Source: an uncultured Leptospiraceae bacterium (GTDB lineage: Bacteria > Spirochaetota > UBA4802 > UB4802). Taken from it: a stretch of 64,000 nucleotides of DNA. Location of the stretch: positions 18,827 to 82,826 of the forward strand of contig CAZVRB010000004.1 in the NCBI GenBank assembly GCA_964629365.1, in the 5' to 3' direction. Both the position numbers and the translations under genes were made by a program. Below, one piece after another: positions 1-29,434 of the stretch (position 1 is its first letter; the number at the start of each line of letters is the position of its first letter). A model generated the notes under the pieces. That model did not search any database and was not told the DNA's origin. It was given only the letters and a program-made list of their open reading frames with translations.

Positions 1-810
1 CTGCTAGCCGGATGTGACATAGGGTCCCTCACTGCAAAGGCGGTGCTCTTAGACCTTGATACGGGTAAAATTCTATCGCAGGGGATACTGCCTGTCAGGC
101 CCACTGCAGCTGAATCATCATACGCTATCATGAATATAGTACTCAACCGGGTTGGCCTGTCTCACGATGATATTGATTACCTCTGCAGCACCGGGTATGG
201 CAGGCTGGAAATTCCATTCGCGGACATGCACATCAGTGAAATATCCTGTCATGGAAGAGGGGCACACTGGCTTGACACGTCAATCCGTACAGTGGTAGAT
301 ATTGGCGGCCAGGACTGCAAGGTCATCTCAATTGATAACGCGGGGTTTATCAATGACTTCATTATGAATGATAAATGCGCTGCCGGTACAGGACGATCAC
401 TCGAGATGCTTGCAGCCACAATTGGGGTTCCACTTGATGATTTGGGCAGGCTTTCACTCAAATCCCGGAAACCAGTACCCATATCAAACAAGTGCAGCAT
501 TTTCATGGAGCTTGAAGTTCTTGATGCCATGTACCGCAAAAAAAAATTGAAACACATAGCCCACGGGCTTACCGACGCCGTCGCAAAACGTGTTGCATCA
601 CTGGCAAAGGCCGTCCCGGTGCGCGAAAGTATATGTATTACCGGGGGTGTAGCAAAAAACATGGGTGTTGTCCGTCAACTTGAGAAATACATGGATATAC
701 ATTTCAAAAAACTTCCAGTAGATTCACAGCTTATCGGCGCTATTGGTGCAGCCCTCTTCGCGGGTGATACATACACAAAAAAAGGGGTCCCATCGGAGGC
801 AAAATGCTGA
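1..810 (+). CDS. BadF/BadG/BcrA/BcrD-type ATPase (HgdC-like CoA-substrate-specific enzyme activase), 5' end truncated by window edge
   Basis: N-term LAGCDIGSLTAKAVLLD matches the GIDxGST actin-fold start and continues in-frame to base 1. DIGGQDCKVI, NDKCAAGTGRSLE (cluster-Cys motif) and NKCSIFMELEV motifs present. Only a few codons are missing upstream. Confidence 0.8.
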   Translation: MLAGCDIGSLTAKAVLLDLDTGKILSQGILPVRPTAAESSYAIMNIVLNRVGLSHDDIDYLCSTGYGRLEIPFADMHISEISCHGRGAHWLDTSIRTVVDIGGQDCKVISIDNAGFINDFIMNDKCAAGTGRSLEMLAATIGVPLDDLGRLSLKSRKPVPISNKCSIFMELEVLDAMYRKKKLKHIAHGLTDAVAKRVASLAKAVPVRESICITGGVAKNMGVVRQLEKYMDIHFKKLPVDSQLIGAIGAALFAGDTYTKKGVPSEAKC

Positions 811-1649
811 CGGCGGGTATCGATGTGGGAACTCGTTTCATAAAGGTGGCAATCACTGATGGGAACATTATGATGGGTTCAAGCTGTATAGAACTGGCTG
901 CCGATTTCAGGGGAATACTTAAGGCCTGTTTTCAAGAGGCACTTGCAGATGCCGCCAATTTCAGTTCTACCCGGGTACGGAAAAGACATGTAAAGAAAAT
1001 AATAGCCACGGGATACGGTGCACACCTTGTAAAACAGGCGGCATATACCATACAGGAATCATTCTGCCTTGCACGTGCCGCTCGTTTCCTGTCACGGGAT
1101 ACCAACACGGTGATAGACAGCGGTGGACTATTTATAAAGGTGGTTACTGTCAATGAACATGGCTTCCCCGAAGAAAGCCATGTCAATGAAAAATGTGCAG
1201 CCGGCAGTGGCAGGTTCCTGGAGATGATTTCCGCGGCATTGAATATTTCGATTAATGAAGTATCACATACAGCATCCAAATCAACAAATCCATATAATAT
1301 CGTGAACAGCTGTGCCGTGTTCGCCGAAAGCGATGTCATCAGCCAGGTAAACGCGGGAACATGTGGTGAAGATATCATCGCCGGTGTTCTCAATGTAATA
1401 ACATTAAAAACCATAACACTCCTGGAAGGTGTGGATTCCGGTGATACAATTGTCATGGCAGGGGGACTTGCAAAGATACCTGCATACATACACGCTCTTG
1501 AACGTTATTCAAAGAAAGATATTTCTCTCATATCTATTGACCCGCAAATGCCTGCAGCATTTGGCGCAGCCCTTATTGCACAGGGAAGGACAATGGTATC
1601 ACACGAAAGAAAAAATGGGACGGGTAGAAAACAAATCCATGATAAGTGA
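804..1649 (+). CDS. second BadF/BcrAD-type activase ATPase (HgdC/BcrA-like)
   Basis: MLTAGIDVGTRFIKV N-term, NEKCAAGSGRFLE and SCAVFAESD motifs, about 280 aa. Overlaps the upstream activase by 7 nt, so the tandem pair resembles BcrA/BcrD. Confidence 0.8.
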   Translation: MLTAGIDVGTRFIKVAITDGNIMMGSSCIELAADFRGILKACFQEALADAANFSSTRVRKRHVKKIIATGYGAHLVKQAAYTIQESFCLARAARFLSRDTNTVIDSGGLFIKVVTVNEHGFPEESHVNEKCAAGSGRFLEMISAALNISINEVSHTASKSTNPYNIVNSCAVFAESDVISQVNAGTCGEDIIAGVLNVITLKTITLLEGVDSGDTIVMAGGLAKIPAYIHALERYSKKDISLISIDPQMPAAFGAALIAQGRTMVSHERKNGTGRKQIHDK

Positions 1650-2436
1650 AAAAGTGAATAATAAAAAGACACAGGATCATGCACCTCTTATTGAGGTCAT
1701 ACACAAAATAACCGGAAACACCACAAGAAGATTCATGGAGTATCCACTTGATGATGGCATTGAAGCTGACAGGTTTAATCTGCGGTCACCCCATGGAGTG
1801 AAAAAACCCGTAATCGTCACCGCAGAAGACACCGCCCTGGAAATTGGATCACCCCATCACCGGGCAGTAAACACGCTGCTGTGGACACACCGGAAAGGAG
1901 TTATCCGCAACCGTGTACTAATCGGAGGCATTGAGATGGAAGAAGCAATGCCGGGACCAGTTACGGCCGCTGTTTGCAGTATGACCGAGATAGAAGAATC
2001 TCTCGACACAAGCGGTCCAAACTTCCAGGCCCTGCGCCATCTTTCCAATATGCTGCCGGGATACATGATTCGCAGTATGCCAGGCAAGATGTGGGTACGT
2101 CTCCACCATAATCTGGTAAAATCAGGTTTTTCATCATATTCACTTGCCCAGTGTCTTGCCCATGCGTATCGTCAATTACATCCAGCCATCAGCGCAGTAG
2201 AGGTAATGGTAGTGATGGGTATACCGGATATCGTAGAGGAAATGGAGTCCGTAGATCTCAGGGCCAGGATCATTAACGGTACAAATCGCAACATTTCACT
2301 CGAAGAAGACGGGTCCCTGGTCTGTGAAGACCTGGATTGTACACACTGCGAGAATATGGCCTCCTGTGATATCATCAGGGAAATAATAAAAAAGAAAAGA
2401 GGAAATAATGGGAAAAACCATCGCCTTCACGGGTAA
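1613..2436 (+). CDS. hypothetical protein with C-terminal Cys cluster (CEDLDCTHCENMASCD); family not recognised
   Basis: Long ORF in a third frame. The likely start is ATG 1613 (MGRVENK) or ATG 1637 (MISEKV), just overlapping the activase stop. No motif I recognise, and it overlaps the CooC-like gene start by about 29 nt. Confidence 0.45.
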
Positions 2437-3181
2437 GGGAGGGGTGGGCAAAACCGCTCTATCCGCCATATGCGGGAAAATACTCATTGAGAAAGGGGAA
2501 CGGGTTCTTTTTATTGATGCTGATCCTGCGATGGGGCTTGCTACCGCCCTGAATGTGAAAGAGTATACAACCATAGGACAGGCACGAGAAGAGATTATCC
2601 GGCAGGTACGAACCACATCCCCGGAGGATGACAAGGCCCCCCTGGCTGATATCATTGATTATCTTCTTCTTGCATCACTGCACGAGGCTGAAGGATACAG
2701 CCTCATAGTAATGGGGCAGACTGATACACTTGGATGTTTTTGCTCATTGAATTCCCTTCTAAAGGATACTATCACTTCAATAAGTGAAGAATACGACTGG
2801 ATTATTATTGATGCCGAAGCAGGATTTGAGCAGGTAAATCGACAGGTTATGAACACCGTACAATTCCCGGTCATCGTCAGCGATAATACAATGCGTGGTG
2901 TTAAAACCGCATCAATGATCATGGAGGTCATAGATCGCATCCCATCAATGAATCCCCTGCGTACCGGTCTCATTTTTAACAGGGTAGAAAAGGCAGAACC
3001 GCAACTTGTACGCAACATCAAATCAGCCGGAATCAATTATTACGGGCATGTGCCTGCTGATAGTGATATATCAAGAATTGACCTGGATGGCACCTCAATT
3101 CTTGATATATCCCGCGATTCTATATCCATGCAAAACATGAAACGTATTCTCTCCGAAAGTAAAATTCTTCAAAAAACTTGA
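2408..3181 (+). CDS. CooC/MinD-family P-loop ATPase (CooC-type metallochaperone-like)
   Basis: Deviant Walker A TGKGGVGKT, and a GCFCS (C-x-C) motif where CooC has its metal-binding CxC. About 257 aa. AGAGGA RBS upstream. Confidence 0.7.
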   Translation: MGKTIAFTGKGGVGKTALSAICGKILIEKGERVLFIDADPAMGLATALNVKEYTTIGQAREEIIRQVRTTSPEDDKAPLADIIDYLLLASLHEAEGYSLIVMGQTDTLGCFCSLNSLLKDTITSISEEYDWIIIDAEAGFEQVNRQVMNTVQFPVIVSDNTMRGVKTASMIMEVIDRIPSMNPLRTGLIFNRVEKAEPQLVRNIKSAGINYYGHVPADSDISRIDLDGTSILDISRDSISMQNMKRILSESKILQKT

Positions 3182-3286
3182 GATTACACTCCCTGAAGTT
3201 TTGTTTCAGCCACTTCACGCCGTACACGACATCACCCTGTTAACCCTGTAGAATGCACTCACATATTATGCGTGAGGAGTAATCAG

Positions 3287-4681
3287 ATGAGAGACGTATA
3301 TATAATTGGAGCTCACACGGTGAAGTTCGGAAAGCACCTCGACAGGTCAATATCCGACCTGTGCAGGATGACAGTTTTCCCCTGCCTCGAAGATGCCAGC
3401 CTTAAAAAAGATGATATACAGGCTATCTGGTTCGCTAATTCTGCATGGGGAGAATACCGGCGACAGGTTTGCATAAGAAGCCAGGTTGCTTTACGACCTC
3501 TTGGTATTGACACGATACCAATGACAAACGTGGAGAATGCATGTGCGGGTGGATCAACTGCCCTCCATCACGCCTGGCTTGGTGTAGCCAGCGGCCTGTA
3601 CGATATCACCATGGCACTTGGCGCAGAAAAAATATACGACCCCAACCGGCACCTGGTATTCTCCGGTTTCCTGACCGGAATGGATGTAGCCAACTTCAAG
3701 GAATCGGTTGCGTTGCTGCCCTCATTATCAATGTCCGATGACGATAAAGAAGCAATGTTCCAACATATCGAAAAGTATGCAAAGAACACAAAGGGAAAGT
3801 CCAAAAAAAGACAAACCGTAAAACAGAAAATCAGGGACACCCGTGATTCCCTGGTAATTGCCATACGAATCGGGGAAAGCATGGGATATGATGCGCTAAA
3901 AATTATTAAGAAACTGATGACCGGTGATCATTCCCCCTTCATGGACGTGTATGGCCATGAAGCCAGGAAGCATATGAAAAAATACGGCAGTTCAATTGAA
4001 GACCTTGCCGTAATTGCATCAAAAAACCATATGCACAGCACCATGAACCCCAATGCCCAATACCAGTTCCCTATCTCTAAAGAAGATGTTCTGGCAGACC
4101 GTCTTGTATCCTGGCCATTGACACGTTCAATGTGTGCTCCCGTCGGTGATGGTGCCGCCTCGTCAATACTCTGTGACGAAAAAACTGTAAGAAAACTTGG
4201 CCTCATGTCCCAGGCAGTAAAAATCAGGGCATCCATACTTGGCTCAGGAAAAGCAAGAGAAGAAAACGAGATGGACCTTGGCCAGCGTCTGGCAAATCGT
4301 GCCTATGAACAGGCGGAGCTTTCACCATCAGACATGGATATAGCCGAGGTTCACGATGCAACAGCTTTTGGAGAACTTCACCAGACAGAAAACCTGGGAT
4401 TCTGCAATGCCGGAGAGGGCGGCACCCTGGCCCAGAGCGGTGCCACACGTATCGGAGGAAAAATTCCCGTTAACACCAGTGGAGGACTTGAATCCCGCGG
4501 GCATCCCATCGGGGCATCCGGGCTTGGACAGGTTCATGAAATCGTCACCCAGCTGCGGGGTAACGCAGGAAAACGGCAGGTAGCATCCCCAAGAATAGGA
4601 ATAGCAGAAAACGGCGGCGGGGCTCTTGGTGTAGAAGAAGCGGCCATGTGCATACACATACTGGAAACACCACAAAAGTAA
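3287..4681 (+). CDS. thiolase-fold protein, SCP-x / nonspecific lipid-transfer-type acetyl-CoA C-acyltransferase with ~80 aa insertion
   Basis: VYIIGAHTVKFGK, NVENACAGGSTAL (active-site Cys) and C-terminal NTSGGLESRGHPIGASG / IAENGGGALG motifs. GAGGAG RBS 7 nt before ATG 3287 (the track ORF starts earlier at 3272). A lysine-rich segment around residues 150-230 is absent from canonical thiolases. Confidence 0.75.
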   Translation: MRDVYIIGAHTVKFGKHLDRSISDLCRMTVFPCLEDASLKKDDIQAIWFANSAWGEYRRQVCIRSQVALRPLGIDTIPMTNVENACAGGSTALHHAWLGVASGLYDITMALGAEKIYDPNRHLVFSGFLTGMDVANFKESVALLPSLSMSDDDKEAMFQHIEKYAKNTKGKSKKRQTVKQKIRDTRDSLVIAIRIGESMGYDALKIIKKLMTGDHSPFMDVYGHEARKHMKKYGSSIEDLAVIASKNHMHSTMNPNAQYQFPISKEDVLADRLVSWPLTRSMCAPVGDGAASSILCDEKTVRKLGLMSQAVKIRASILGSGKAREENEMDLGQRLANRAYEQAELSPSDMDIAEVHDATAFGELHQTENLGFCNAGEGGTLAQSGATRIGGKIPVNTSGGLESRGHPIGASGLGQVHEIVTQLRGNAGKRQVASPRIGIAENGGGALGVEEAAMCIHILETPQK

Positions 4682-6468
4682 TGAAGGAACAGGTGAACGA
4701 TATGATGAGTCAAAACTTGAAAATATTTATCGGAAAGATGAGAATGCTGAAAAATGTAACCAGGTCATTGTTCATCTTCATGGGAGAAGATATCAAACGG
4801 GGTACTCTTTCAAAGAACCTCAAGGGCATCGGCAAGATGGAGCTTGCCGAAGAGATGTCCTGGGCAGAACTTGTGGAAGAAAAAGCCGCAAAATATGGCA
4901 GCAGGACATACCTTACATATGAGGACAGAAACTTCTCATACAGTGATATGAATGACAATGCAAATCGTATCGCAAATTTTCTTAAGAAAGCCGGTGGTCA
5001 ACAGGGTGTGGGGGTTGCCATCTTTATGGACAACAGTCCACGTTTTCTTGATGTTTTCTTTGGCCTGCAGAAGATCGGAATGTATGCCGTCCCGGTAAAT
5101 ACATCATTAAAAGGTGAGGGCATGAAGTATATTCTCAATCATTGTGATGCCCGGTTTCTCGTGATAGACCAGCAGCACCTTCACACACTCCAAAAGATCG
5201 AAGCCAACCTTGATACCATTCATACCATTATCGTGAACCCCTCAGAGAATTCTCCCATCATAGCTGAAAGAAATTATCTTTCCCTTGATGACGCCTACAC
5301 TGAGAATCCCCATAATCCGGGTACAGGCTATAACAGGGACGACATCTGTTTTATTACCTACACCTCCGGCACTACCGGGCTTCCCAAGGGTGTGGTCTAT
5401 CGCTATCGCAACAGCGGGGTGAAGTTTTTCTCTCTTATCGCCCATATATTGTGGAGAAAACGAGATGTCATGTATACCTGCATGCCCCTTTTCCATGCCA
5501 ATGCTCTTGTTGTTACCTGTACCAGCGCACTGCACGCGGGAGCCCGTGTTGTGCTTGAGAAAAAGTTTTCGGCAAGTCGATTCTGGCACTCTATTCGTAC
5601 ACATGGCGTTACTACTTTCAATACCATCGGTGCCATGATCCCTATCCTCATGAAACAGCCCGAGAATGAACTTGATGGAAAAAACAAAGTTCGTTTTATC
5701 ATATCTGCCGCATGCCCCCCTGAACTATGGGAACAATTCGAAAAACGCTTCAATACAACAATATACGAAACATATGGAGCAGTTGACAGCGGCGGCAAAA
5801 CCATCTTAAACCTGGGCACCGCACCGGTGGGATCAATTGGCAAACCACCCATGAAGGTAACATATCGCCTGGTTGACGAACACATGAATGATGTACCTGA
5901 AGGAGAACCGGGAGAATTAATATTCCCCGCGCCAAAAGAAAAGACTGCCAGTTCGGGTGTTGAGTTTTATAAAAATGAAGAAGCAACCTCTGCCAAGCAA
6001 AGCGATGGGTGGATCAGGACCGGGGATCTTCTGAAACGGGATAAGAAAGGATACCTTTATTTTGTAGGACGTAATACCGAGTCCATGCGGATCAAGGGGG
6101 AAAATGTCTCTGCCTACGAAGTTGAACAGGTAATACAAAATCATCCTTCTGTACTGGAAGTTGCCGTATATGCGGTCCCCTCAGACCTGGCTGAAGATGA
6201 GATCATGGCAAGGGTTAAAATTGTGGACGGGAAAAGAATAACAGAAAAAGAACTATGGGAATTCATCATTGAGAACCTGGCAAAATTTGCCGTCCCCAGG
6301 TATATTAAATTTGTTTCTGACTTTGATAAAACAGAGACCCATCGCATAAAGAAGAAACAGCTGGAGCAGGACGGAATTGTAGAAGGTACATACGACGCAC
6401 AGAAAAACACCTATATAACGACAGGAAATAACAAACCGAAAGAAGCTGCAACCGGACACAGTGTATGA
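4681..6468 (+). CDS. AMP-dependent acyl-CoA synthetase/ligase
   Basis: YTSGTTGLPKGV AMP-binding motif, a TGD motif and the two-domain ANL layout. ATG 4681 overlaps the thiolase stop (TAATG), which suggests translational coupling. The track ORF start at 4648 is probably too early. Confidence 0.8.
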   Translation: MKEQVNDMMSQNLKIFIGKMRMLKNVTRSLFIFMGEDIKRGTLSKNLKGIGKMELAEEMSWAELVEEKAAKYGSRTYLTYEDRNFSYSDMNDNANRIANFLKKAGGQQGVGVAIFMDNSPRFLDVFFGLQKIGMYAVPVNTSLKGEGMKYILNHCDARFLVIDQQHLHTLQKIEANLDTIHTIIVNPSENSPIIAERNYLSLDDAYTENPHNPGTGYNRDDICFITYTSGTTGLPKGVVYRYRNSGVKFFSLIAHILWRKRDVMYTCMPLFHANALVVTCTSALHAGARVVLEKKFSASRFWHSIRTHGVTTFNTIGAMIPILMKQPENELDGKNKVRFIISAACPPELWEQFEKRFNTTIYETYGAVDSGGKTILNLGTAPVGSIGKPPMKVTYRLVDEHMNDVPEGEPGELIFPAPKEKTASSGVEFYKNEEATSAKQSDGWIRTGDLLKRDKKGYLYFVGRNTESMRIKGENVSAYEVEQVIQNHPSVLEVAVYAVPSDLAEDEIMARVKIVDGKRITEKELWEFIIENLAKFAVPRYIKFVSDFDKTETHRIKKKQLEQDGIVEGTYDAQKNTYITTGNNKPKEAATGHSV

Positions 6469-6480
6469 GTTGAACGATCA

Positions 6481-6516
6481 GGGGAGAGAACCACAATTCA
6501 ACTCTCCCCTTCTTTT
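6481..6516. terminator. bidirectional rho-independent terminator hairpin between convergent genes
   Basis: GGGGAGAG-13 nt loop-CTCTCCCC followed by TTCTTTTCC on the + strand. Confidence 0.4.
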
Positions 6517-8147
6517 CCCTGCATCATTACACGATATTCACTTGGTGTCTTACCTGTCTGTTTTTTAAATTGCCGGTGGAAATGCGTCAGGTTGTCGAAA
6601 CCCACATGATACGCGATATCTATAATCTTTGCATCTGTTTCCATCAACAAATCTTTTGCCCCTTCAATACGCTTGTTGTTTATATAATTCGATATGTTTA
6701 TTCCCGTTGTTTTTTTAAATACCTGCCCCATGTAATCTTCATTGAGACCAAATTTTTTCGACAGATCCTTACGGTCATATCGCTCCTGGTAATTCACATC
6801 AAGGTATTCAATGACATCATGTATCATATCCCTTGGATCAGGTTTCACCGACTCACCCTTAATTGAATTGAGTATTCGCTCCATTTTCTTTGTTTTTTTC
6901 AAAAGGGCACCGTACAGCGAATCCTTCTCTCTTTTCATTCGTTCAAAATCATAGATATAATACAAAGCGAATATGGTGAATACCAGCGGCACATGGAAAA
7001 ATATCAGCATCGGGAGTTCATCGAATCGAAATGTGGCCATGTAATACGTATTTCTAAGAACCGAGACCGGAACCGGGATAGCCACAAAAAGGAAGTACCA
7101 GTATCGTCGTGGGTCCCGTCGTATACATATAAAAAAAAGTACAGCAGCGGTTATAATACAGAGATTAACAAAAATGACCGTTCCCAGGCCTGCACCCTTG
7201 ATAAGAAAGGACGTATCAGGTGCTAAAACTATTGCCAGCACCAGAGGCATACCCAGTATAAATGACATCCATACTATATACTTATTTTTTATATCAAAAA
7301 ATTCCATGACCGCATGCAACGCGATAAAATTAACCAGGGTGAGGCTCATCAGGAACATCTTGTATCGCAAAAGGCCTGAAATAGCACAATTGAAATCCAG
7401 CATGGTCACATTACCGGCGAGGGTGAATAAAACGAGAAGGAAGAAATAGAGGTATTCTCTCCGGCCGGTACGGGATACCGCCAGTACCCCGAGTCCCAGC
7501 AGGAAAAGAAAATTGAGTGCCACAGAAGAAATATTGATCAGTATTGGAGTTTTGTTTTCTATTCTATGCGCAAAATACCCGCCGGGATATTCTGTAATTC
7601 CCATATATCCATTGATGCCGCTGATCACATGTGAAAAGACCCGAATAGCGATAGTATTATATTCACCATACCGAACAAGCGTATCGGGTAGTAGATAAGA
7701 ACGGCCCTGTTGCCATGAGAAATGGTACCTGTCATCTTCTTTATCCGGTATGGTTCCATTTGCACCCACCTGTATACCATTGAGGAACGTCTCATCTGCC
7801 ACACCAATTCGTCCCAGGAGAAGACATAATGATTTTCCCCTGTACTCTTCACCTATAAAAATTTTTTTCCGCAGCCATATAGTGGCCTCAAGGTTTTGCT
7901 GATCAATAATCAGGCGGGTAAAACTTCCAGGTAATTCCAGTTCAGGATAATCTCTATCATCCAGGGAAGGAAGGGCAAGTTCAGGATTATCGAAGGTTGA
8001 ATACTTCCATGTTCCACTGCAATCAATATCAGTGTCAGGGGTTCCTGCGGTAGTACATGCAGTACACAACAAGACAACACAGGCGATGCATATATATTTG
8101 ATAGTAGTCATAATCACATGAACATGAGTTTTGCAATATTTCCCCAA
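6498..8147 (-). CDS. 7TMR-DISM (DISMED2 extracytoplasmic domain + 7TM) fused to AraC-family HTH regulator
   Basis: Signal peptide and lipobox-like CTAC, an about 180 aa periplasmic beta-rich domain, then 7 hydrophobic helices. C-terminal HTH_AraC: DIAYHVGFDNLTHFHRQFKKQTGKTPSEYR. Confidence 0.7.
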   Translation of the reverse strand: MGKYCKTHVHVIMTTIKYICIACVVLLCTACTTAGTPDTDIDCSGTWKYSTFDNPELALPSLDDRDYPELELPGSFTRLIIDQQNLEATIWLRKKIFIGEEYRGKSLCLLLGRIGVADETFLNGIQVGANGTIPDKEDDRYHFSWQQGRSYLLPDTLVRYGEYNTIAIRVFSHVISGINGYMGITEYPGGYFAHRIENKTPILINISSVALNFLFLLGLGVLAVSRTGRREYLYFFLLVLFTLAGNVTMLDFNCAISGLLRYKMFLMSLTLVNFIALHAVMEFFDIKNKYIVWMSFILGMPLVLAIVLAPDTSFLIKGAGLGTVIFVNLCIITAAVLFFICIRRDPRRYWYFLFVAIPVPVSVLRNTYYMATFRFDELPMLIFFHVPLVFTIFALYYIYDFERMKREKDSLYGALLKKTKKMERILNSIKGESVKPDPRDMIHDVIEYLDVNYQERYDRKDLSKKFGLNEDYMGQVFKKTTGINISNYINNKRIEGAKDLLMETDAKIIDIAYHVGFDNLTHFHRQFKKQTGKTPSEYRVMMQGKEGES

Positions 8148-8337
8148 TCACTGCATGAAAACATAAAAAAATCAACGAATTTATTATACTCTCCTTGTAA
8201 TTGACAACACGATACGCAAAAATAAATACACTACATCAAGAATGCAGCAACTTCCTTAATATACTGCAAGAAATAGAACTTACTATATTGTAGTATTCAT
8301 CATACTTTCAAAGGGAAGAGACTACAGAACGTTTTAA

Positions 8338-8784
8338 TTGCAGAGGCACTTAATTATGAATGATAATGTATTTCTTCGTCTATACAAAGTTATATTTATC
8401 CTGGCTGCACTCTGGAATATTTGTGTCGGTGCTACAGGACTCCTGTTCCAGAATTATTCCATTCAATTGTTTTATGGAAGCAGTGCGTTGCATGAGACGT
8501 TTATCGCAATGCTGAATTATCGCATCGTTATGCTGGCAATAATTATTTTCGGGCTTGGATATTTTATCGTATCCAGGGCACCCCTCTTGAACAGGGGAAT
8601 AATATGGCTTGGGCTTTTAAGCAAGCTCATCCTGTTTTGCATATTTACGTTTCATTTTTTCACCGGAAATACCACCATATTCGCATTTCTTCTCGTCTGC
8701 GGAGACATGGCATGGTCACTTATATTCTTATATTTTCTATTCAAAAGTTCGCATCACGTAAAATATAATTTTTTAACAGGATAG
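8338..8784 (+). CDS. small integral membrane protein, hypothetical
   Basis: 148 aa, 4 predicted TM helices, AT-rich promoter region upstream. Confidence 0.4.
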   Translation: MQRHLIMNDNVFLRLYKVIFILAALWNICVGATGLLFQNYSIQLFYGSSALHETFIAMLNYRIVMLAIIIFGLGYFIVSRAPLLNRGIIWLGLLSKLILFCIFTFHFFTGNTTIFAFLLVCGDMAWSLIFLYFLFKSSHHVKYNFLTG

Positions 8785-8792
8785 AATACGGC

Positions 8793-9548
8793 ATGAAAAA
8801 AAAACCAGATACTACACTGTCCCCCCTGTATACCTATCATGAAGGGATGCAATGGAACCCCGTCGAAAAGGTGATATTTGAGCGAAGGAGCATTCGTGTC
8901 TTCAGGAAAAAAGATGTACCGGATTCCCTTATCAAAAGAATTTTAGAAGCAGGTCGGTTTGCCCCTTCAGCGGGCAACTGCCAGCCCTGGAAATTCGTGG
9001 TAATAAAAGATCCACAGGTTATAGAGCAAATGGAACGGGACACAATACGAATTACCCGACTCCTGATGTGGTTCATTGACTACGAACGGGGACCCGTAAG
9101 GCGTATTCTTCTGGGCACTCCGGTAAGGCTTTTGGCCAGGCTTGTGCCCAACATGCTGCACCCCATACCATTCAACCTGCTTCAGCGCATCGCCGCTGGT
9201 TCAGTACCCGTGTATCATAATGCCCCGGTTATAATCCTTCTTTTGGTAGACAAGCGAGGGGTTGGAACACCATCACTGGACGCGGGAATTTGCGGACAAA
9301 ACATGGTACTGGCTGCACACAGCCTGGGTCTGGGCACATGCTGGATCGGAATGATCACCTTGCTGATGAAAATGAAGAAGTGGCGTAAACGTTTTGGGGT
9401 TACATACCCATTTACCCTTGACGACTGTCTCATACTGGGCTGGCCACGGGGGGATTATGATGGTGAAATAGATCGCGAAATACAACTCGTTGAATGGATC
9501 AAAGAAGGTTCATCGTGGGACAAAACTACAGAACGACAGGGGGAATAA
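8793..9548 (+). CDS. nitroreductase family protein
   Basis: RRSIRVF...AGRFAPSAGNCQPWKFVVI signature of the NADH oxidase/nitroreductase fold. Confidence 0.75.
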   Translation: MKKKPDTTLSPLYTYHEGMQWNPVEKVIFERRSIRVFRKKDVPDSLIKRILEAGRFAPSAGNCQPWKFVVIKDPQVIEQMERDTIRITRLLMWFIDYERGPVRRILLGTPVRLLARLVPNMLHPIPFNLLQRIAAGSVPVYHNAPVIILLLVDKRGVGTPSLDAGICGQNMVLAAHSLGLGTCWIGMITLLMKMKKWRKRFGVTYPFTLDDCLILGWPRGDYDGEIDREIQLVEWIKEGSSWDKTTERQGE

Positions 9549-9549
9549 C

Positions 9550-9906
9550 ATGGCAAACCTTTCCATTCTGGATAAAGCAAAAATACCCAACTATTTCAAG
9601 TCAAAGCATATACGAACCGGCCTGGTCGTCTTTGATCCGTCACTGTGCACAGGATGTGGAATCTGCGTTTCCATCTGCCCTGCCGGTGCCATAACGATGA
9701 ACAGCCATATCCCGGGGGAGCGAACGAAAATCCCTGAGCTTGTACAGCTCTTTCATGATAAAGACATTCTCGCCTGCATGGCCTGCGGTGATTGCACGGC
9801 AGCATGTCCCAGTGATGCTATACAAATTAAGAGAGGATACAATACGAAGTATTATTTCAAAAAGATATCCCAGGTGCCCGACTTTGCTTTCCCCAAAAAA
9901 TACTGA
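9550..9906 (+). CDS. 4Fe-4S dicluster ferredoxin-domain protein
   Basis: Two CxxCxxCxxxCP motifs (CTGCGICVSICP, CMACGDCTAACP). The start MANLS at 9550 abuts the nitroreductase stop. Confidence 0.7.
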   Translation: MANLSILDKAKIPNYFKSKHIRTGLVVFDPSLCTGCGICVSICPAGAITMNSHIPGERTKIPELVQLFHDKDILACMACGDCTAACPSDAIQIKRGYNTKYYFKKISQVPDFAFPKKY

Positions 9907-10069: not shown

Positions 10070-10771
10070 ATGAAAAAAGCATTTTTTGCGGTTTTTCTAA
10101 TGTTGTTTGTCGTATCCTGTGGTCCATCAGCTAATCCGCAGCTCAAGGCAAAGATCAGCCCATACTTTACACAGGATTCTTCCACTCGTATCAGGGCATC
10201 AAAGAAATTTTATTCACCCATGCCCCTTGCCATTGGGCAGTACGCAGTTTATGGAACCATTGAAGATGATGGTACCCGCTCAATCACAAAGACCAGTATT
10301 GTTGGCAGGGAAGCCGGTGGCTGGATATATGAATCCTACACCCTGTCTGAGACCCAGGAGAGCACAGTACAAATTCTCATCAGGGGACTTGAAAAAGTTC
10401 GAAAGTCAGGAAACATTGATGACATCGAACTCTTATGGGTAAAGATTAAGGGAGAGGACGGCAAAGTGCAAAAGCTTGAAGGCCCTGTTCTCATGATGGC
10501 CAAATCACTGTACAAAAAACACCTTTCAGGACTGGATGTAACTGTTTCCCAATATGTGAACGGTGGTACAGTCAAGGTTCCCGCTGGATCATTCGCAGGC
10601 ACTAACAAGGTCAAGTCAGAGGTCACCTTCTGGGGTAAAAAGTATAAGAGCACAGGCTGGTACCATTATAAAGTCCCTATTAACGGTATGGTTAAATCGG
10701 TAACTGATGATGGTGATTCCACAATGGTGCTTCTAGAGTATGGCACCCGGGGCGCAAAATCTTCATTTTGA
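10070..10771 (+). CDS. lipoprotein, hypothetical
   Basis: MKKAFFAVFLMLFVVSC lipobox signal peptide, GGA-rich RBS. Confidence 0.5.
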   Translation: MKKAFFAVFLMLFVVSCGPSANPQLKAKISPYFTQDSSTRIRASKKFYSPMPLAIGQYAVYGTIEDDGTRSITKTSIVGREAGGWIYESYTLSETQESTVQILIRGLEKVRKSGNIDDIELLWVKIKGEDGKVQKLEGPVLMMAKSLYKKHLSGLDVTVSQYVNGGTVKVPAGSFAGTNKVKSEVTFWGKKYKSTGWYHYKVPINGMVKSVTDDGDSTMVLLEYGTRGAKSSF

Positions 10772-10829: not shown

Positions 10830-12389
10830 TTATTTCATTCCGAAAAATGAACTGATGCTATTTATAATCTCATCTCCGTAATCTCCCAGCAATTCACCTG
10901 TACTTTTTCTGTGCTTAAGCTGCAGTCTTGATTCAGTTTCCAGCTTGCGGCTTGCCATTACTTTTGCAAGCTCTTCAATAACCTCCGGCCTTTTTTCCAG
11001 TATAGGGGCAAGGTCTTCCCTGGAAAATTCCATGGCCTGGCAATCGGTAAGGGCAACAATTGTGGCCGATCTGCGCTCACCTGTTAAAAGTGAGTTTTCC
11101 CCGAAACAATCCCCGGTTGCCAGGCGCTCCAGTTCAACCGGCTTGCCATATGAATCAAGACGGGATATGGAGATTACACCGGCAGTTAATACCATCAGGG
11201 AATCACCTTTGTCCCCTTCCCTGACAATGGTTTCGTTTTCCCTGTAACTATTCAGGGTTACCCTTTCCAACAGTTCTTTGCGCTCTTCTTCGGTAAGAGG
11301 CGAAAAAATTTCAACGCTGGATATAAGTTCGTCAAGACCGGGTTCAATTATTTCATTGCGCTCTCCACTAAAGACATTCACTTCATGAGCGGATGGTGGC
11401 GGACTTATTCCTGCCTTCTGGCAATAATTCCATATCTCCATGAAAAGGTCATCACGGGCGGCAAAATACGTGGGATAATCTTCAAAATATACAAAAACAG
11501 AGTAGAGATAAGGCCTGCTCGTCCCATCCGAGAGGCGAACTACAGGGGGAGGATCCTTCAAAACTTTTTTACAGCTGAGAGCTGCTTCCAGTAAAACCCG
11601 ACGTACGAGTTCAGGAGAGATATCAGGTGAAATTTCCATCTTGAACCATGTACAGTAAACCCTGTCAGGCAGGTTGTAATTATGGATTGTGGAGGACATG
11701 GCTTTTCCGTTGGGTACTACGTACACGCTCTTGTTCCATGACAAAAGTCTTGTTGAGCGCCAGTTGATATCCACAACCTTCCCAATAGTACCATCACCCA
11801 TCTCAATCCAGTCATTGATACGGTAGGGTTTCTCTATGCTGAGAGCTATACCCGCGAATATATCTCCCAGGGTAGTTTGCATCGAAAGACCTATAACCCC
11901 GGCAATAATCCCTGATGAAACAAGAAGACCGGTTACAGGGCGGTCAAACACAAAGGTCATAATGCCATAAATGGCAAGGAGGTATACCCCTATCCTCACA
12001 AGGTTTTGCAGTATGTTGGGAACATCCATACCGGTTCGCCGTTTTACCATCCCTTTCCATACAAATAAATCTACAGCCTGAACAATTATACGGGCAAAAA
12101 TCAACCATAGTAAAACGGTTCGACCACGAGTTATCATGTTCGCGATTCTATCATCAAGAATAGGACCAAGCCAGTTGAATACCAGTGCTTCAAGTGACAA
12201 TACAAATAGGGGCAAAAGCACTATCTGTATCAACCAGAAAAAACGGATTATCAACAGCACCTGCAAACGATCAGCTGCTTTTTTCAATATCACGTATATA
12301 ACAAAAATCACGAGGACCGGATACGCCATCTCAACTGGCAGGCTTGATGTACTGCCCTTGAGGTATTCCAATATCATATGCACATTCAT
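10830..12389 (-). CDS. MscS-family mechanosensitive channel with C-terminal cyclic-nucleotide-binding domain
   Basis: TM region plus MscS pore/beta domain (GDIFAGIALSIEKPYRINDWIE...VVPNG). C-terminal cNMP-binding domain (GDKGDSLMVLTAGVISI...GDCFGENSLLTGERRSATI). Confidence 0.8.
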   Translation of the reverse strand: MNVHMILEYLKGSTSSLPVEMAYPVLVIFVIYVILKKAADRLQVLLIIRFFWLIQIVLLPLFVLSLEALVFNWLGPILDDRIANMITRGRTVLLWLIFARIIVQAVDLFVWKGMVKRRTGMDVPNILQNLVRIGVYLLAIYGIMTFVFDRPVTGLLVSSGIIAGVIGLSMQTTLGDIFAGIALSIEKPYRINDWIEMGDGTIGKVVDINWRSTRLLSWNKSVYVVPNGKAMSSTIHNYNLPDRVYCTWFKMEISPDISPELVRRVLLEAALSCKKVLKDPPPVVRLSDGTSRPYLYSVFVYFEDYPTYFAARDDLFMEIWNYCQKAGISPPPSAHEVNVFSGERNEIIEPGLDELISSVEIFSPLTEEERKELLERVTLNSYRENETIVREGDKGDSLMVLTAGVISISRLDSYGKPVELERLATGDCFGENSLLTGERRSATIVALTDCQAMEFSREDLAPILEKRPEVIEELAKVMASRKLETESRLQLKHRKSTGELLGDYGDEIINSISSFFGMK

Positions 12390-18609: not shown

Positions 18610-19284
18610 CTACGAACCTGATCTTGACATTTCAATAATACTGTCCGACTCCCAGATGTGTATACCCTTGCTATTATCAAGGGCTGCGGTTTTCATGGCA
18701 CTGGCAACCACTCTGGCCTTCACGGGCCTGTATTTTCTTGCCGGTCCCACCATGAGAAAAGACAACCAGGGAAGAACCTTCATCCCCAGCTCTTCAGCAA
18801 ACCTTTGTTCATTTCTTTCACCCAGCAGCAATGATGGCCTGAATATATGCAGGGCTGAAAAACCCATGGTTTGCAGTTTTTCCTCCACTTCACCCTTAAC
18901 CCTGTTGTAGAACACAGAAGATCGCGGATTGGCCATCATTGCGGTTATCACTAAGAAACGGGAAGCACCAGCATCTTTTGCAAGCTTCGCCGCCTGAACC
19001 ACGTAGTGATAATCTACTTTTTTAAATGCTTCCCTGCTCCCGGCTTTTTTCATAGTAGTTCCCAGGCAACAGAACACATCATCAACCTTGAAAAGATGGC
19101 CTTGTTCTGCCATCCTGTCAAAATCAATAATATACTGCTGAACCTTTTCACCGGAGACATCTGAATTACGCCTGACTGGAACAGTAATCATTGTATATGC
19201 GTCATCATTGTTTAATAAACGCACAAGTTCACCTCCCACCAGTCCGGTGGCACCCAGAACAAGCGCTGTTTTTTTGTCCGTCAT
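18610..19284 (-). CDS. NAD(P)H-binding oxidoreductase (atypical SDR / NmrA-like)
   Basis: LVLGATGLVGGELVRLL Rossmann motif. Overlaps the upstream transporter gene by 4 nt. Confidence 0.65.
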   Translation of the reverse strand: MTDKKTALVLGATGLVGGELVRLLNNDDAYTMITVPVRRNSDVSGEKVQQYIIDFDRMAEQGHLFKVDDVFCCLGTTMKKAGSREAFKKVDYHYVVQAAKLAKDAGASRFLVITAMMANPRSSVFYNRVKGEVEEKLQTMGFSALHIFRPSLLLGERNEQRFAEELGMKVLPWLSFLMVGPARKYRPVKARVVASAMKTAALDNSKGIHIWESDSIIEMSRSGS

Positions 19285-22084: not shown

Positions 22085-22138
22085 TTATAGCAAGAACACC
22101 TTTATATGTCAATACATTCTCACCAGTGTATACACTAA

Positions 22139-22783
22139 TTACCCCTGAAGCATTCCCCGAATTACCGTCATTATTTTTTCAACTATCATTTCAGTTGGGA
22201 TATCACCGAAATGCATATACAGTTTTTCTTTCTCGTGATTTGAGATATATGACTTCATCAATGTCCCCACGATGCCATCCACACAAAAGGCAGCGGCAGC
22301 GGCATCGATTCGGTCACTTATACTTCCCTCATCAATCCCCTGCTTTATAATATCCTTCCAGAATGTGATACCTTCTTTTTCCAAAACCAGCGTATCCTCT
22401 GAAAACCTGGCGTTATATTCGAAACTGAGTTCAAGCCATATTGAAATACTATCCGGGTCCGTAACCGCAATCGCAAGAGAGGTGGATAGAATTCTTTCAA
22501 TGTTTTCAAACACGTCCAGGGTTTTCTCCTCACTTCCTGAAAACGCCTGTCTCTGAACCTGGTGACCTCTCTGTATGATTGTTCGTATAAGATCATCCTT
22601 TGAGGCAAAATACGTATACATGGAGCCATGTGATATCCCCGCCTTTTTGGCAATATCATCAATACGGGTATCTGAAAGTCCTCTTCGCCTGAACTCTTCA
22701 AGGGAAAGGCGCAGAATCCGTTCACTTTTCTCTCCCGGTATCTTTTCAAATGTTTCACTGTAATATTTTTTCATGTGTATCAA
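22139..22783 (-). CDS. TetR/AcrR-family transcriptional regulator
   Basis: N-terminal HTH ILRLSLEEFRRRGLSDTRIDDIAKKAGISHGSMYTYF. Confidence 0.8.
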   Translation of the reverse strand: MIHMKKYYSETFEKIPGEKSERILRLSLEEFRRRGLSDTRIDDIAKKAGISHGSMYTYFASKDDLIRTIIQRGHQVQRQAFSGSEEKTLDVFENIERILSTSLAIAVTDPDSISIWLELSFEYNARFSEDTLVLEKEGITFWKDIIKQGIDEGSISDRIDAAAAAFCVDGIVGTLMKSYISNHEKEKLYMHFGDIPTEMIVEKIMTVIRGMLQG

Positions 22784-22926
22784 TCCAGTCTTTTTTTATA
22801 TCAAAAACCATATATTGCACTGTGTATTGTTCTGCATCATTGAATTGCTGATATCAAGTAAAATATTACTTTAACTGGTTTACAAATATCTTGACAGTGT
22901 AGTGTTTCAGGGTAGATATTTTATAC

Positions 22927-24726: not shown

Positions 24727-24737
24727 TAACCTGTAAT

Positions 24738-29187: not shown

Positions 29188-29361
29188 ATAGTATACTAAT
29201 TCTAATTACCAGAAAATCAGCTTACTATATACCATAGATCACAATTTTACAACAAAAAATATACACTGACCTTTCGCACATATTTAGATATCATTAATCG
29301 GCCAATTAATGATTGACTATGTCAATATTATATTCTCTCATACAATATAATCAACCTGAAA

Positions 29362-29434
<73 letters not shown>

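Follow-up and report, generated by a model that had tools for sequence, protein, structure and literature searches.

The analysis of a 64-kb stretch of DNA from a Spirochaetota metagenome-assembled genome (the window, in what follows) reveals that its positions 1-6468 make up one half of a gene cluster that is conserved and encodes an ATP-driven iron-sulfur enzyme akin to benzoyl-CoA reductase (BCR). This segment corresponds to the leading transcription unit of a longer conserved locus. Six co-directional genes, separated by overlaps or short gaps, were confirmed on the plus strand where the initial annotation had described them, and profile searches with PF01869, thiolase, AMP-binding and CbiA/AAA_31 families gave matches far beyond chance. 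Among the products of the unit is a 273-aa Cys-rich protein that is a truncated acetyl-CoA synthase (ACS), consisting of the ACS middle domain and a C-terminal Cys motif (mini-ACS).

Gene content of the locus

The unit begins with two tandem HgdC/BcrAD-type ATPases, as proposed initially. ACT1 (1..810, plus strand; 270 aa) matches PF01869 at 3.5e-51 and reaches 229 bits with TIGR00241, whose cutoff is 125. It starts with an ATG 3 nt ahead of the window, at position 189 of contig L001, which matches the window genes at 99-100% and carries a 188-nt non-coding leader ahead of this start. The second, more divergent ATPase, ACT2 (804..1649, plus strand; 281 aa; PF01869 4.9e-36; TIGR00241 170 bits), overlaps ACT1 by 7 nt and directly follows it throughout the close clade. 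The closest solved relatives of ACT1 are HadI and MbdQ. The two cluster-ligating Cys that both window ATPases had been said to retain (NDKC-AAGTGR / NKC-S and NEKC-AAGSGR / NSC-A) indeed fall in the same alignment columns as those of HadI and MbdQ.

The unit closes with a thiolase and a CoA ligase, both of the predicted families. The SCP-x/archaeal-type thiolase (3287..4681, plus strand; 464 aa; Thiolase_C_1 8e-37, Thiolase_N 6e-16) starts 105 nt after the CooC-like gene with an AGGAG ribosome-binding site and shares 64-76% identity among the close-clade loci. It carries a Lys-rich insertion of ~70 aa and matches NCBIfam PRK06064 (312 bits) in two segments that are interrupted at ~residues 147-217. 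The AMP-forming acyl-CoA ligase (4681..6468, plus strand; 595 aa from 4681, or 588 aa if it starts at 4702 as the gene caller has it; PF00501 7.8e-75, PF13193 3.6e-13) shows the motif YTSGTTGLPKG, and none of the closest NCBIfam models is matched above its cutoff. The TAATG coupling suggested for the two genes is uncertain, given the gene caller's start and a gap of ~20 nt in relatives. Ligase and thiolase together suggest a carboxylic acid that is processed in CoA-ester form. Both genes are absent from the Firmicute loci and several others, the core module of Desulfitobacterium and Sporomusa has no CoA-ester genes beside it, and loci L010 and L049 keep the mini-ACS/CooC pair with no CoA-ester genes nearby.

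Reading the sequence directly, we found a GC-rich hairpin, GGGGAGAG-N13-CTCTCCCC followed by TTCTTTT (6481..6509, no strand assigned), between the convergent genes for the CoA ligase and an AraC-family regulator. It probably marks the end of the first transcription unit and was missed by a consensus scan because its loop exceeds 8 nt. The AraC-family gene (6498..8147, minus strand; 549 aa; HTH_18/HTH_AraC on the called gene) encodes a protein whose N-terminal part is long and hydrophobic. The gene has no counterpart at this position in any of the relatives, where GntR or TetR regulators lie upstream, and by gene order reads as a lineage-specific insertion into the cluster.

Three further plus-strand genes are co-conserved with the cluster. 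A small hydrophobic protein (8356..8784; 142-148 aa) has no family match in NCBIfam, and tblastn places homologues sharing 30-46% identity at the corresponding position in L002, L009, L013-L017 and L032. A nitroreductase-family flavoprotein (8793..9548; 251 aa; PF00881 on the called gene) is found at the same position in close-clade relatives with 57-69% identity, and with 45% in L032/L033. A 2x[4Fe-4S] ferredoxin (9550..9906; 118 aa; Fer4 families on the called gene, ferredoxin-type NCBIfam matches) shares 34-56% identity with the relatives' copies. By analogy with the ferredoxins of BCR systems, it is likely the electron donor to the ATPase pair.

The mini-ACS and its CooC-type neighbor

The mini-ACS gene (1615..2436, alternative start 1639, plus strand) overlaps ACT2. 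Its product, initially considered unclassifiable, can be assigned as a homologue of the ACS middle (A2) domain on the basis of sequence, structure and conservation. While the single protein scores below cutoff against Pfam CdhC (1.5e-3; 18.9 vs 24), it matches NCBIfam cdhC at ~6e-6, and a 35-sequence family profile matches ACS residues 334-480 with an E-value of 2.3e-8. This assignment was further strengthened by an AF2 model (pLDDT 80; 56-66 at the Cys motif), for which all 23 Foldseek matches in the PDB at E<=1e-3 are ACS.

In ACS, the A2 domain contributes to CoA binding. In mini-ACS it is followed by the motif C237-x4-C242-x2-C245-x5-C251, which aligns weakly (E 0.035) to the C-x2-C...C region of ACS with identical x8 spacing and apparently occupies the place where the A-cluster has its first three cubane ligands. 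By this weak alignment and the ACS numbering, mini-ACS presumably also retains the Cys that bridges the cubane to the proximal Ni. A true A-cluster is nevertheless impossible, because mini-ACS lacks both the Cys-Gly-Cys that binds Ni in ACS and a Cys at the fourth cubane position. Residues E76, G78, P80, G149, W160, R162, C242, C245 and C251 are invariant in the family, C237 is kept in at least 90%, and the invariant W-x-R motif aligns to 'WVRIS' of ACS. The family comprises 345 representatives at 50% identity, and among the 150 of these that were listed most are ~240-280 aa long and none exceeds 319 aa. One member (P0184) is fused to a 2x[4Fe-4S] ferredoxin domain, which favors a redox or FeS role for mini-ACS.

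The adjoining gene (2408..3181, plus strand), which overlaps the mini-ACS gene by 29 nt, encodes a CooC-type SIMIBI ATPase of 257 aa. It matches CbiA/AAA_31 at ~1e-16 and carries the motifs GKGGVGKT, DADP, G-C-F-C-S-x-N and EAGFEQ, all four of which are kept in 26 distinct orthologues from the loci. Its best full-length PDB match is CooC1 (3KJE; E 1.5e-8, 38 bits) with the C-x-C motif aligned, in agreement with the initial designation. The view that such an ATPase is unusual beside BcrAD/HgdC genes also held, and targeted full-text literature searches found no published link between the two.

Linkage across lineages and the catalytic subunits

The conservation of this arrangement was investigated in 25 non-redundant mini-ACS lineages (clusters at 90% identity), which include Spirochaetota, Thermodesulfobacteriota and the cultured Desulfitobacterium hafniense and Sporomusa silvacetica. 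The CooC-like gene is present in all 23 lineages with enough flank and directly adjacent to mini-ACS in 22 of the 23 testable ones. HGD-D (HgdAB/BcrBC-type) genes are present in 20/25, the other five being truncated contigs, and activase genes wherever flanks allow. ACT1-ACT2-miniACS-CooC is contiguous and unchanged in order in all close-clade loci, with the HGD-D pair lying divergently upstream, directly upstream or downstream. More distant members (25-34% identity) show HGDb-HGDa-ACT-miniACS-CooC or permuted orders. A ZIP-family transporter was observed near one of the loci examined. The reverse test, starting from CooC-like homologues, recovered two HGD-D genes, an activase, a CdhC-like and a CooC-like gene together in Desulfitobacterium hafniense DCB-2, Sporomusa silvacetica and a 4.9-Mb genome. 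Since the Cys-rich protein and the CooC-like ATPase are linked in every testable lineage, the combination that the initial annotation had named as contrary evidence, HGD-D genes upstream with these two genes unlinked elsewhere, is not what we observed. The linkage of this pair with HGD-D and activase genes therefore indicates that the locus encodes an enzyme of the BCR class I/2-hydroxyacyl-CoA dehydratase/double-cubane type.

A tblastn search (E<=1e-3) found no HGD-D homologue anywhere in the 64-kb window, consistent with the earlier statement that none lies downstream. The initial annotation had offered two solutions, a catalytic partner just upstream of the window or the Cys-rich protein itself as a CooC-matured partner, and both are partly borne out. 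Contig L023, 99.86% identical to L001 over a 2871-nt overlap, extends 1004 nt beyond the start of ACT1. On this upstream stretch lies a divergent HGD-D gene that shares 57% identity with HGDa of L009 and whose open reading frame reaches L023 position ~683. This places the start of an alpha-type HGD-D gene ~324 nt upstream of window base 1 on the opposite strand, in agreement with the synteny of L016-L018. From synteny with relatives, a beta-type HGD-D subunit and a GMC oxidoreductase would also be expected in the window's genome. The second solution holds insofar as the Cys-rich protein and the CooC-like ATPase form a strictly linked pair in every testable lineage, but mini-ACS as a catalytic replacement for HgdAB/BcrBC is ruled out because HGD-D pairs are always present where flanks allow.

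The Cys ligands of the HGD-D subunits were compared using the relative L002 (42% mini-ACS identity). Its HGDb is closest to BzdN (1.4e-37), the [8Fe-9S] subunit according to the published BzdN/BzdO cluster assignments (PMC11971306), and six Cys align to Cys of BzdN. Its HGDa aligns to BzdO and keeps the three Cys of the open-site [4Fe-4S] cluster, while the catalytic His131 of BzdO is replaced. Against the NCBIfam equivalog models for BCR, the scores of the HGD-D proteins stay far under the cutoffs. The anaerobic aromatic or alicyclic acid catabolism proposed initially thus finds no support in the HGD-D scores, in the missing His131 or in the Desulfitobacterium and Sporomusa modules, which have no CoA-ester genes beside them.

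Relation to known enzymes and proposed role of the accessory pair

The Bzd/Mbd class I BCRs (BzdNOPQ, MbdONQP) resemble this system in their two different HgdC-type ATPase subunits encoded in tandem, their BzdN-like and BzdO-like HGD-D subunits (six and three Cys aligned in L002) and a ferredoxin gene within the cluster. They differ in that all four subunits here fall far below the equivalog cutoffs, His131 is replaced, and genes for the dienoyl-CoA hydratase, dehydrogenase and ring hydrolase are missing here. The HadBC/HadI and HgdAB/HgdC dehydratases belong to the two protein families found here, ACT1 being equally close to HadI and MbdQ, and the distant clade has a single activase gene, as the 2-hydroxyacyl-CoA dehydratases do. 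The window's clade differs by its two distinct ATPases and by the low scores of its HGD-D proteins with HadB and HadC. Among NCBIfam models, both HGD-D subunits match the 'double-cubane-cluster-containing anaerobic reductase' best, and DCCP/DCCP-R of Carboxydothermus hydrogenoformans shares the ATP-driven ASKHA reductase partner and, with several of the loci, the lack of a CoA-ester context. However, scores stay below cutoff (206 vs 350 at best), and DCCP is homodimeric whereas two different HGD-D subunits occur here. The literature searched contained no mini-ACS or CooC gene associated with BCR or with 2-hydroxyacyl-CoA dehydratases, and neither the double-cubane/CooC searches nor a term search of the 2020 DCCP review yielded an ACS-like or CooC partner of DCCP.

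Mini-ACS shares the A2 domain with ACS (AcsB/CdhC) in sequence and fold, and its Cys motif lies where the cubane ligands of the A-cluster begin. With the neighboring ATPase, which has the CooC fold and C-x-C site, it gives the impression of a client encoded beside its chaperone, as for ACS and its CooC-type maturase AcsF. Unlike ACS, mini-ACS measures 240-280 aa rather than 460-730 aa. It lacks the A1 domain and the Cys-Gly-Cys and retains hardly any of the A3 domain, and none of its loci holds CODH, corrinoid protein or methyltransferase genes. CooC, which inserts Ni into the CODH C-cluster, shares the deviant Walker A, the switch motifs and the G-C-x-C-x-x-N metal site, but the similarity to CooC1 is only distant, and the linked client here is mini-ACS with the HGD-D enzyme, no CODH gene being seen in any locus.

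With moderate confidence, we favor an ATP-driven Fe-S enzyme in which mini-ACS, loaded by the CooC-type ATPase, is an extra FeS subunit or adaptor. ACT1 and ACT2 would form a heterodimeric HgdC/BcrAD-type ATPase that accepts an electron, probably from the downstream ferredoxin, and spends ATP to inject it at low potential, with the HGD-D pair outside the window as the catalytic component. The accessory pair would descend from ACS and the CooC-type maturase AcsF. Its likeliest role would be to load a metal or cluster site at the expense of ATP, or to serve as an extra FeS subunit. A CooC-type ATPase dimer would thus load or repair the site on mini-ACS, and the loaded protein would serve the HGD-D/ATPase core as an FeS subunit or as an adaptor for cluster or electron delivery. 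Homologies, motifs and gene linkage are observed, whereas the identity of the metal, the physical association with the core and this direction of action are inferred.

A tentative alternative is that both proteins are pure assembly factors, a transient scaffold and an ATP-driven inserter outside the working enzyme, which build or repair an unusual HGD-D cluster, namely the double cubane or a heterometal form of the cluster at the active site. To our knowledge, CooC and AcsF are maturation factors in every characterized case; the six BzdN-aligned Cys of HGDb point the same way, and strict co-inheritance with HGD-D genes suits a dedicated maturase equally well. Yet BzdNO made in E. coli acquired its [8Fe-9S] and [4Fe-4S] clusters with no dedicated maturation factor listed in the methods (PMC11971306), so a maturase is not generically needed for this enzyme type. 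Furthermore, the overlaps of the mini-ACS gene with both ACT2 and the CooC-like gene, and the ferredoxin fusion, fit a stoichiometric redox subunit better than a scaffold acting only transiently.

It is unlikely that the system is a nickel enzyme, in which the CooC-like ATPase inserts Ni beside the mini-ACS cubane or at the mini-ACS/HGD-D interface, giving an A-cluster-derived Ni-FeS site for catalysis or low-potential electron transfer. The characterized CooC-family proteins with this C-x-C motif are all known to handle Ni, the motif is invariant here, and the presumed Cys bridging to the proximal Ni would fit, but the Cys-Gly-Cys ligands are gone and the loci examined yielded neither a Ni transporter nor any other gene for Ni handling. 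Highly improbable is a substrate-handling subunit whose A2 domain recruits or positions the acyl-CoA substrate, with a structural Cys motif (Zn or FeS) that the CooC-like ATPase only matures. The A2 homology is the best-supported part of mini-ACS, the W-x-R motif is invariant, and the window locus has the ligase and thiolase, but the loci of Desulfitobacterium, Sporomusa, L010 and L049 keep the pair with no such genes nearby.

No paper describing an HGD-D/ATPase enzyme with an ACS-like and CooC-type accessory pair was found in the literature searched. The new feature is a fixed accessory pair, formed by mini-ACS and a CooC-type ATPase whose C-x-C metal site is intact.

Organization of the six-gene unit and its flanks

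The six co-directional genes that the initial annotation had placed at positions 1-6468 were all recovered as open reading frames on the plus strand, and the families of the encoded proteins are backed by Pfam and NCBIfam matches with E-values of about 1e-16 to 1e-75. ACT1 (1..810), the first of two tandem HgdC/BcrAD-type ATPases, is entered by the window at its second codon, its ATG lying 3 nt earlier on L001, a contig that carries the same genes, after a 188-nt non-coding leader. It overlaps the gene for the second ATPase, ACT2 (804..1649), which is followed by the gene for a 273-aa Cys-rich protein, here termed mini-ACS (1615..2436, alternative start 1639), and by that for a CooC-like ATPase (2408..3181), the latter two overlapping by 29 nt. 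A thiolase gene (3287..4681), with AGGAG 7 nt before its ATG, and a CoA ligase gene (4681 or 4702..6468) complete the unit. The one uncertain detail is the proposed TAATG coupling between the thiolase and ligase genes, as the ligase start itself is uncertain: the gene caller places it at 4702, and a gap of about 20 nt is found in relatives.

Both proteins, which belong to the electron-activating ATPases, score above the curated cutoff of PF01869 (ACT1 174.7 bits, ACT2 125.1 bits; cutoff 31.5) and above that of TIGR00241 (229.6 and 170.4; cutoff 125.4). The two Cys motifs claimed for each subunit are borne out by the alignment, in which NDKC and NKC of ACT1 and NEKC and NSC of ACT2 fall on the corresponding cysteines of the solved activator HadI and of MbdQ from 3-methylbenzoyl-CoA reductase; the two aligned cysteines per subunit are the ligands of the inter-subunit [4Fe-4S] cluster. 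By sequence alignment, ACT1 and ACT2 are equally near to HadI and MbdQ. The two-ATPase architecture of the window's clade resembles that of class I benzoyl-CoA reductase (BCR); the scores against BzdQ (193 for ACT1 and 92 for ACT2) do not reach the equivalog cutoff of 380.

The thiolase, of the SCP-x/archaeal type, exceeds the Pfam cutoffs for Thiolase_C_1 (126.5 bits), Thiolase_N (59) and Thiolase_C (39.2), reaches no NCBIfam subfamily cutoff, and shows a nucleophile-like N-A-C-A-G-G and a G-H-P motif in its translation; where SCP2-type thiolases have H-D-C-F, H-D-A-T is found. Relative to the NCBIfam models, which match in two stretches, it carries a Lys-rich insertion of about 70 aa (KNTKGKSKKRQTVKQKIRD) at about residues 147-217, and the insertion length is retained in relatives (464-474 aa). 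The ligase belongs to the ANL superfamily, with AMP-binding (252.5 bits) and AMP-binding_C (50.7 bits) matches and the P-loop-like motif YTSGTTGLPKG.

Downstream, where the ligase and AraC genes converge, a GC-rich, terminator-like hairpin (GGGGAGAG-N13-CTCTCCCC, then TTCTTTT) occupies 6481-6509 and overlaps the stop codon of AraC. Consensus scans for promoters and terminators returned sites no more frequently than in shuffled sequence, and this hairpin was missed because its loop is long. The AraC-family regulator (549 aa; 6498-8147, minus strand), which has a long hydrophobic multi-span N-terminal part, is lineage-specific and is inserted between the ligase and the genes for a small membrane protein, a nitroreductase-type flavoprotein and a ferredoxin, which are co-conserved at 8356-9906; in relatives this position is empty, and GntR or TetR regulators are encoded upstream. 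The AraC protein may act as a lineage-specific sensor for the pathway's substrate. The intergenic stretch 8147-8356 differs by 1 nt in length from L001, and downstream coordinates are offset by one relative to that contig. Past the ferredoxin, where Smithella-type relatives have a pair of catalytic HgdAB/BcrBC-type subunits (HGD-D), different genes occur at 10070-10771 and 10830-12389. The first encodes a protein of 233 aa that matches no family and whose hydrophobic N-terminus resembles a signal peptide; the second, convergent, encodes an MscS-type channel that includes a cNMP-binding domain. Elsewhere the window appears to carry the usual housekeeping and sensory genes of Spirochaetota, among them a GH1 beta-glucosidase accompanied by an MFS_2 transporter, a hybrid histidine kinase of the 7TMR-DISM type, a protein of the penicillin amidase family and an aminotransferase at 18610-33062, and ValRS at 51880-54522. 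Proteins sharing at least 90% identity with five of the window's proteins bear Spirochaetota MAG labels. Genes for CO dehydrogenase (CODH), acetyl-CoA synthase (ACS) or Ni transport were not noticed among the window ORFs scanned.

The Cys-rich protein and its CooC-like neighbour

The Cys-rich protein had been considered unclassifiable; sequence profile and fold instead identify it as a truncated ACS. Searched alone, it remains below the gathering cutoff of Pfam CdhC (PF03598; E 1.5e-3, 18.9 bits against 24) and matches NCBIfam cdhC at about 6e-6, and a precomputed PF03598 match is present in many of its relatives. Three relatives were retrieved by a single-sequence, word-indexed search and 39 by a profile search, and a HMMER search of 1.84 billion cluster representatives returned 345 family matches at E<=1e-3, with lengths of 84-319 aa, mostly about 240-280 aa, among the 150 matches listed. 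A 35-sequence profile aligns to residues 334-480 of Carboxydothermus ACS (E 2.3e-8), and all 15 of its PDB matches at E<=1e-5 are ACS or CdhC. The AlphaFold2 model (mean pLDDT 80.4) gave the same answer in Foldseek, where 23/23 PDB matches at E<=1e-3 are ACS (TM about 0.5, query-normalised) and the next match has an E-value of 0.86.

Across a diverse alignment of 36 sequences, E76, G78 and P80 (the 'ELGxP' motif), G149, W160, R162, C242, C245 and C251 are invariant, and C237 is conserved in at least 90%. The W-x-R element aligns to the ACS sequence 'WVRIS'. With a profile of the C-terminal 100 residues, ACS is again the top match, a weak one (E 0.035), in which C237 and C242 fall on the C-x2-C of ACS once an insertion of two residues is allowed for; from C242 to C251 the spacing is x8, as it is from the second to the third cubane cysteine in ACS. 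The chain stops about 20 residues past this Cys motif, and thus the position of the fourth cubane cysteine and the Cys-Gly-Cys Ni ligands are absent; the full A-cluster ligand set of an A3 domain (four cubane cysteines plus Cys-Gly-Cys for Ni-Ni) is not found, there being no C-G-C in mini-ACS. The additional cysteine C245 could supply the fourth cubane ligand. Mini-ACS thus comprises the ACS A2 domain and a probable [4Fe-4S] site where A3 would begin. Two family members lack the first motif cysteine: P0184 (308 aa, from the representative search), in which mini-ACS is extended by a C-terminal 2x[4Fe-4S] ferredoxin domain, and P0224, which has no such extension.

The adjacent CooC-like ATPase shows the SIMIBI fold with a deviant Walker A and switch motifs (GKGGVGKT, DADP, EAGFEQ), together with CbiA/AAA_31 matches, and its best full-length solved relative is CooC1 (3KJE), whose alignment pairs G-C-F-C-S-L-N with Q-C-Y-C-R-E-N. 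In the CooC/AcsF family of metal-insertion ATPases, to which the maturase of ACS belongs, the C-x-C metal-binding motif is located at the dimer interface. Both of its cysteines are invariant across the CooC-like orthologues, all 26 distinct members of which keep GKGGxGK[ST], DADP, G-C-[FY]-C-[PS]-x-N and EAG[ILF]EQ. Unlike the CooC/AcsF family, the CooC-like gene has no genomic tie to CODH or full-length ACS: neither is among the genes listed for the annotated loci, where the CdhC-like genes measure only 242-263 aa.

Catalytic subunits and the conserved gene neighbourhood

A tblastn search of the 64-kb window with six HGD-D, GMC and other queries, including the HGD-D proteins of a relative, found no HGD-D gene, which rules out catalytic genes downstream as in Smithella-type loci. 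The exact mini-ACS sequence of the window was located on a JGI contig (L023), which is 99.86% identical to L001 over a 2871-nt overlap, L001 in turn being 99-100% identical to the window genes. L023 provides 1004 nt before ACT1, and the contig carrying the CooC-like protein (13.8 kb) ends 191 nt upstream. On the minus strand of L023, an HGD-D open reading frame starts at position ~683, 324 nt before window base 1 by read-through, and its first ~227 residues are visible, with 57% identity to the alpha-type subunit (HGDa) of locus L009. Of the two alternatives in the initial annotation, the first, a catalytic partner just upstream of the window, was therefore right; mini-ACS as a new catalytic partner replacing HgdAB/BcrBC is ruled out, as HGD-D pairs accompany the module throughout (20/25 clusters, the other five all lying on contigs cut short on one side). 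The intergenic region (L001 1-188; L023 684-1004) contains two related palindrome-like motifs, GTGCACCATTAGTGCAC and GTGTACCATTTGCACA, both just upstream of a promoter-like site (TTGACA-N17-TAGATA) between the divergent HGD-D gene and ACT1; these motifs are a possible operator.

The class of the catalytic subunits was examined in L002, a relative with 42% mini-ACS identity. The class I BCR pattern of two HGD-D subunits, one with six cysteines for an [8Fe-9S] cluster and the other with three for an open-site [4Fe-4S], is matched there by alignment; in the window's own genome the comparison covers the first ~227 residues of the alpha-type subunit, on L023. Its beta-type subunit (HGDb) is closest to BzdN (8S02_B, E 1.4e-37), which holds an [8Fe-9S] double cubane through six Cys ligands (PMC11971306), and six HGDb cysteines align to cysteines of BzdN, while HGDa aligns to BzdO with the three cysteines of the open-site cluster. 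Glu65 and His131 of BzdO have catalytic roles (PMC11971306), and His131 lies beside the aqua-[4Fe-4S]. The aligned stretch excludes Glu65, and the comparison of catalytic residues thus covers His131 only: C128-C-S-H131 of BzdO corresponds to C-D-T-N in L002 (His131 to Asn) and to C-D-S-S in the L023 fragment, with Ser at the His131 position. The HGD-D proteins of relatives match the NCBIfam models 'double-cubane reductase', HadB/HadC, BzdN/BzdO and BcrB/BcrC, all far below the equivalog cutoffs (58-146 against 421-487 for BzdN, BzdO, BcrB and BcrC).

The suggested co-occurrence of the Cys-rich protein with activase and CooC genes was examined in 50 loci gathered by exact look-ups, by scans of GTDB genomes and of metagenomes, and by reverse look-ups that started from homologues of the CooC-like protein, mapped by tblastn and grouped into 25 mini-ACS clusters at 90% identity. 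The linkage proved complete wherever there was enough flank: a CooC-like gene lies within 10 kb of mini-ACS in 23 clusters and directly next to it in 22, the exception being Desulfitobacterium hafniense, where one MCP-type gene intervenes; in the two clusters with no CooC-like gene, the downstream sequence extends for 844 nt at most. The reverse test started from the CooC-like protein, with 2363 homologues at E<=1e-10, and recovered the module in D. hafniense, Sporomusa silvacetica and a genome of 4.9 Mb. Chance neighbourhood is ruled out by the 23/23 linkage over three or more phyla and by these reverse look-ups. Verified contexts come from Spirochaetota, Thermodesulfobacteriota (Smithella, Desulfosudaceae and others), Bacillota and one MAG labelled Bacteriovoracaceae, and the subfamily is widespread in anaerobes, cultured Desulfitobacterium and Sporomusa included.

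The window's clade has the fixed order ACT1-ACT2-miniACS-CooC, around which the placement of the HGD-D pair varies: divergently upstream with a GMC oxidoreductase (L009, L016-L018, L032/L033), immediately before it (L010, L049), immediately after it (L021, probably also L011/L012, whose contigs end after a partial HGD-D match), or after the thiolase, ligase, membrane protein, nitroreductase and ferredoxin genes (L002, L013-L015, L026-L028). L049, which comes from the 4.9-Mb genome, is arranged like L010 and in addition has a divergent gene for a ZIP-family metal transporter upstream. In this sub-clade, thiolase and ligase are replaced (L010 11561-15853; L049 10889-14965) by genes for a CCG-domain protein, a FAD_binding_4 (GlcD-like) oxidase, a Fer4_8/CCG (HdrD/GlcF-like) protein and DUF6125. 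Distant members (25-34% identity; L034-L036, L041-L046) have a single activase, in the order HGDb-HGDa-ACT-miniACS-CooC or permutations of it. D. hafniense DCB-2 (L048; CP001336.1 1178993-1195790) encodes two HGD-D proteins, BcrAD, a CdhC-like protein of 251 aa, the MCP-type gene and the CooC-like ATPase, adjoining a Tat-type flavoprotein and an FMN-binding protein; Sporomusa silvacetica DSM 10669 (L050; CP155573.1 3705446-3722207) encodes a cytochrome c, two HGD-D proteins, BcrAD, a CdhC-like protein of 242 aa and the CooC-like ATPase. No CoA-ester genes stand beside the module in either genome, and its neighbours encode FAD_binding_2 flavoprotein reductases and an FMN-binding protein or multihaem cytochrome c with cytochrome c maturation genes. 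Such a setting gives a hint that the substrate may not be a CoA ester, or that there may be a link to respiration.

Enzyme class, proposed mechanism and significance

By its sequence affinities, the core is a divergent member of the superfamily of class I BCR, 2-hydroxyacyl-CoA dehydratase (HAD) and double-cubane cluster protein (DCCP), because the HGD-D proteins score far below the equivalog cutoffs, their cysteines align to BzdN/BzdO, and both ATPases are equally near to HadI and MbdQ. A bona fide benzoyl-CoA reductase is ruled out by the equivalog cutoffs that are not reached and by the substitution of His131. Ligase and thiolase share an operon with the ATPase pair. In the proposed mechanism, ferredoxin would reduce the ACT1/ACT2 cluster and ATP hydrolysis would drive an electron from it into the HGD-D clusters, which would carry out radical reduction or dehydration of the CoA ester made by the ligase, with the thiolase acting later in the pathway. 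On the most economical reading, the mini-ACS/CooC pair would have descended from ACS and its CooC-type maturase; the dimeric CooC-like ATPase would fill or mend a metal or cluster site of mini-ACS, and mini-ACS may then function as a further FeS subunit or as an adaptor for delivery.

The clusters of BzdNO were assembled in E. coli, with no dedicated factor listed in the methods of that study (PMC11971306). This speaks against a generic need for a maturase, so that the role of the mini-ACS/CooC pair would be specific to this subfamily. That the two proteins are purely transient assembly factors is rather unlikely: the overlapping reading frames and the ferredoxin-fused member speak against it, and on these grounds we favour a lasting redox subunit. 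Several other roles were considered for the pair. A metallocentre inherited from ACS, on which this subfamily of ATP-driven BCR/HAD/DCCP-type radical enzymes would depend, consisting of a cubane, on the 250-aa ACS remnant, to which a dedicated CooC-type ATPase would add Ni (or another metal), seems quite doubtful; if true, these would be the first Ni-dependent members of the superfamily and a third client class for CooC chaperones. A CooC-dependent Ni-FeS site is given still less credence and appears very doubtful, and a part for mini-ACS in CoA handling is highly improbable.

The chemistry of ATP-driven FeS 'archerase' enzymes ranks among the most reducing in biology, and the forms known so far require, to our knowledge, no more than two protein families, HGD-D and the HgdC-type ATPase. 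Targeted full-text searches, with few subscription journals covered, turned up no BCR, HAD or DCCP system for which a CooC-type or ACS-like component is described, and nothing relevant on CooC or a CO dehydrogenase maturation factor in connection with an activase or Desulfitobacterium; in public databases these proteins go under the names 'hypothetical protein', 'AAA family ATPase', 'CO dehydrogenase maturation factor' or 'CO dehydrogenase/acetyl-CoA synthase beta subunit'. The enzyme class is already known; new, as far as found, are the constant accessory pair of an ACS-derived and a CooC-type protein and the family in which the ACS A2 domain stands alone. The middle domain of ACS is thereby shown to be able to exist and be selected by itself. 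As the module is present in the cultured D. hafniense DCB-2 and S. silvacetica DSM 10669, the role of the pair is directly testable. Overall, a distinct and phylogenetically broad subfamily always comes with two further components borrowed from the CODH/ACS world, whose presence implies one of the following: the need for a cofactor, possibly a heterometal, that has gone unrecognised; a new route for electron entry or repair; or a new job for a CooC chaperone outside CO metabolism.
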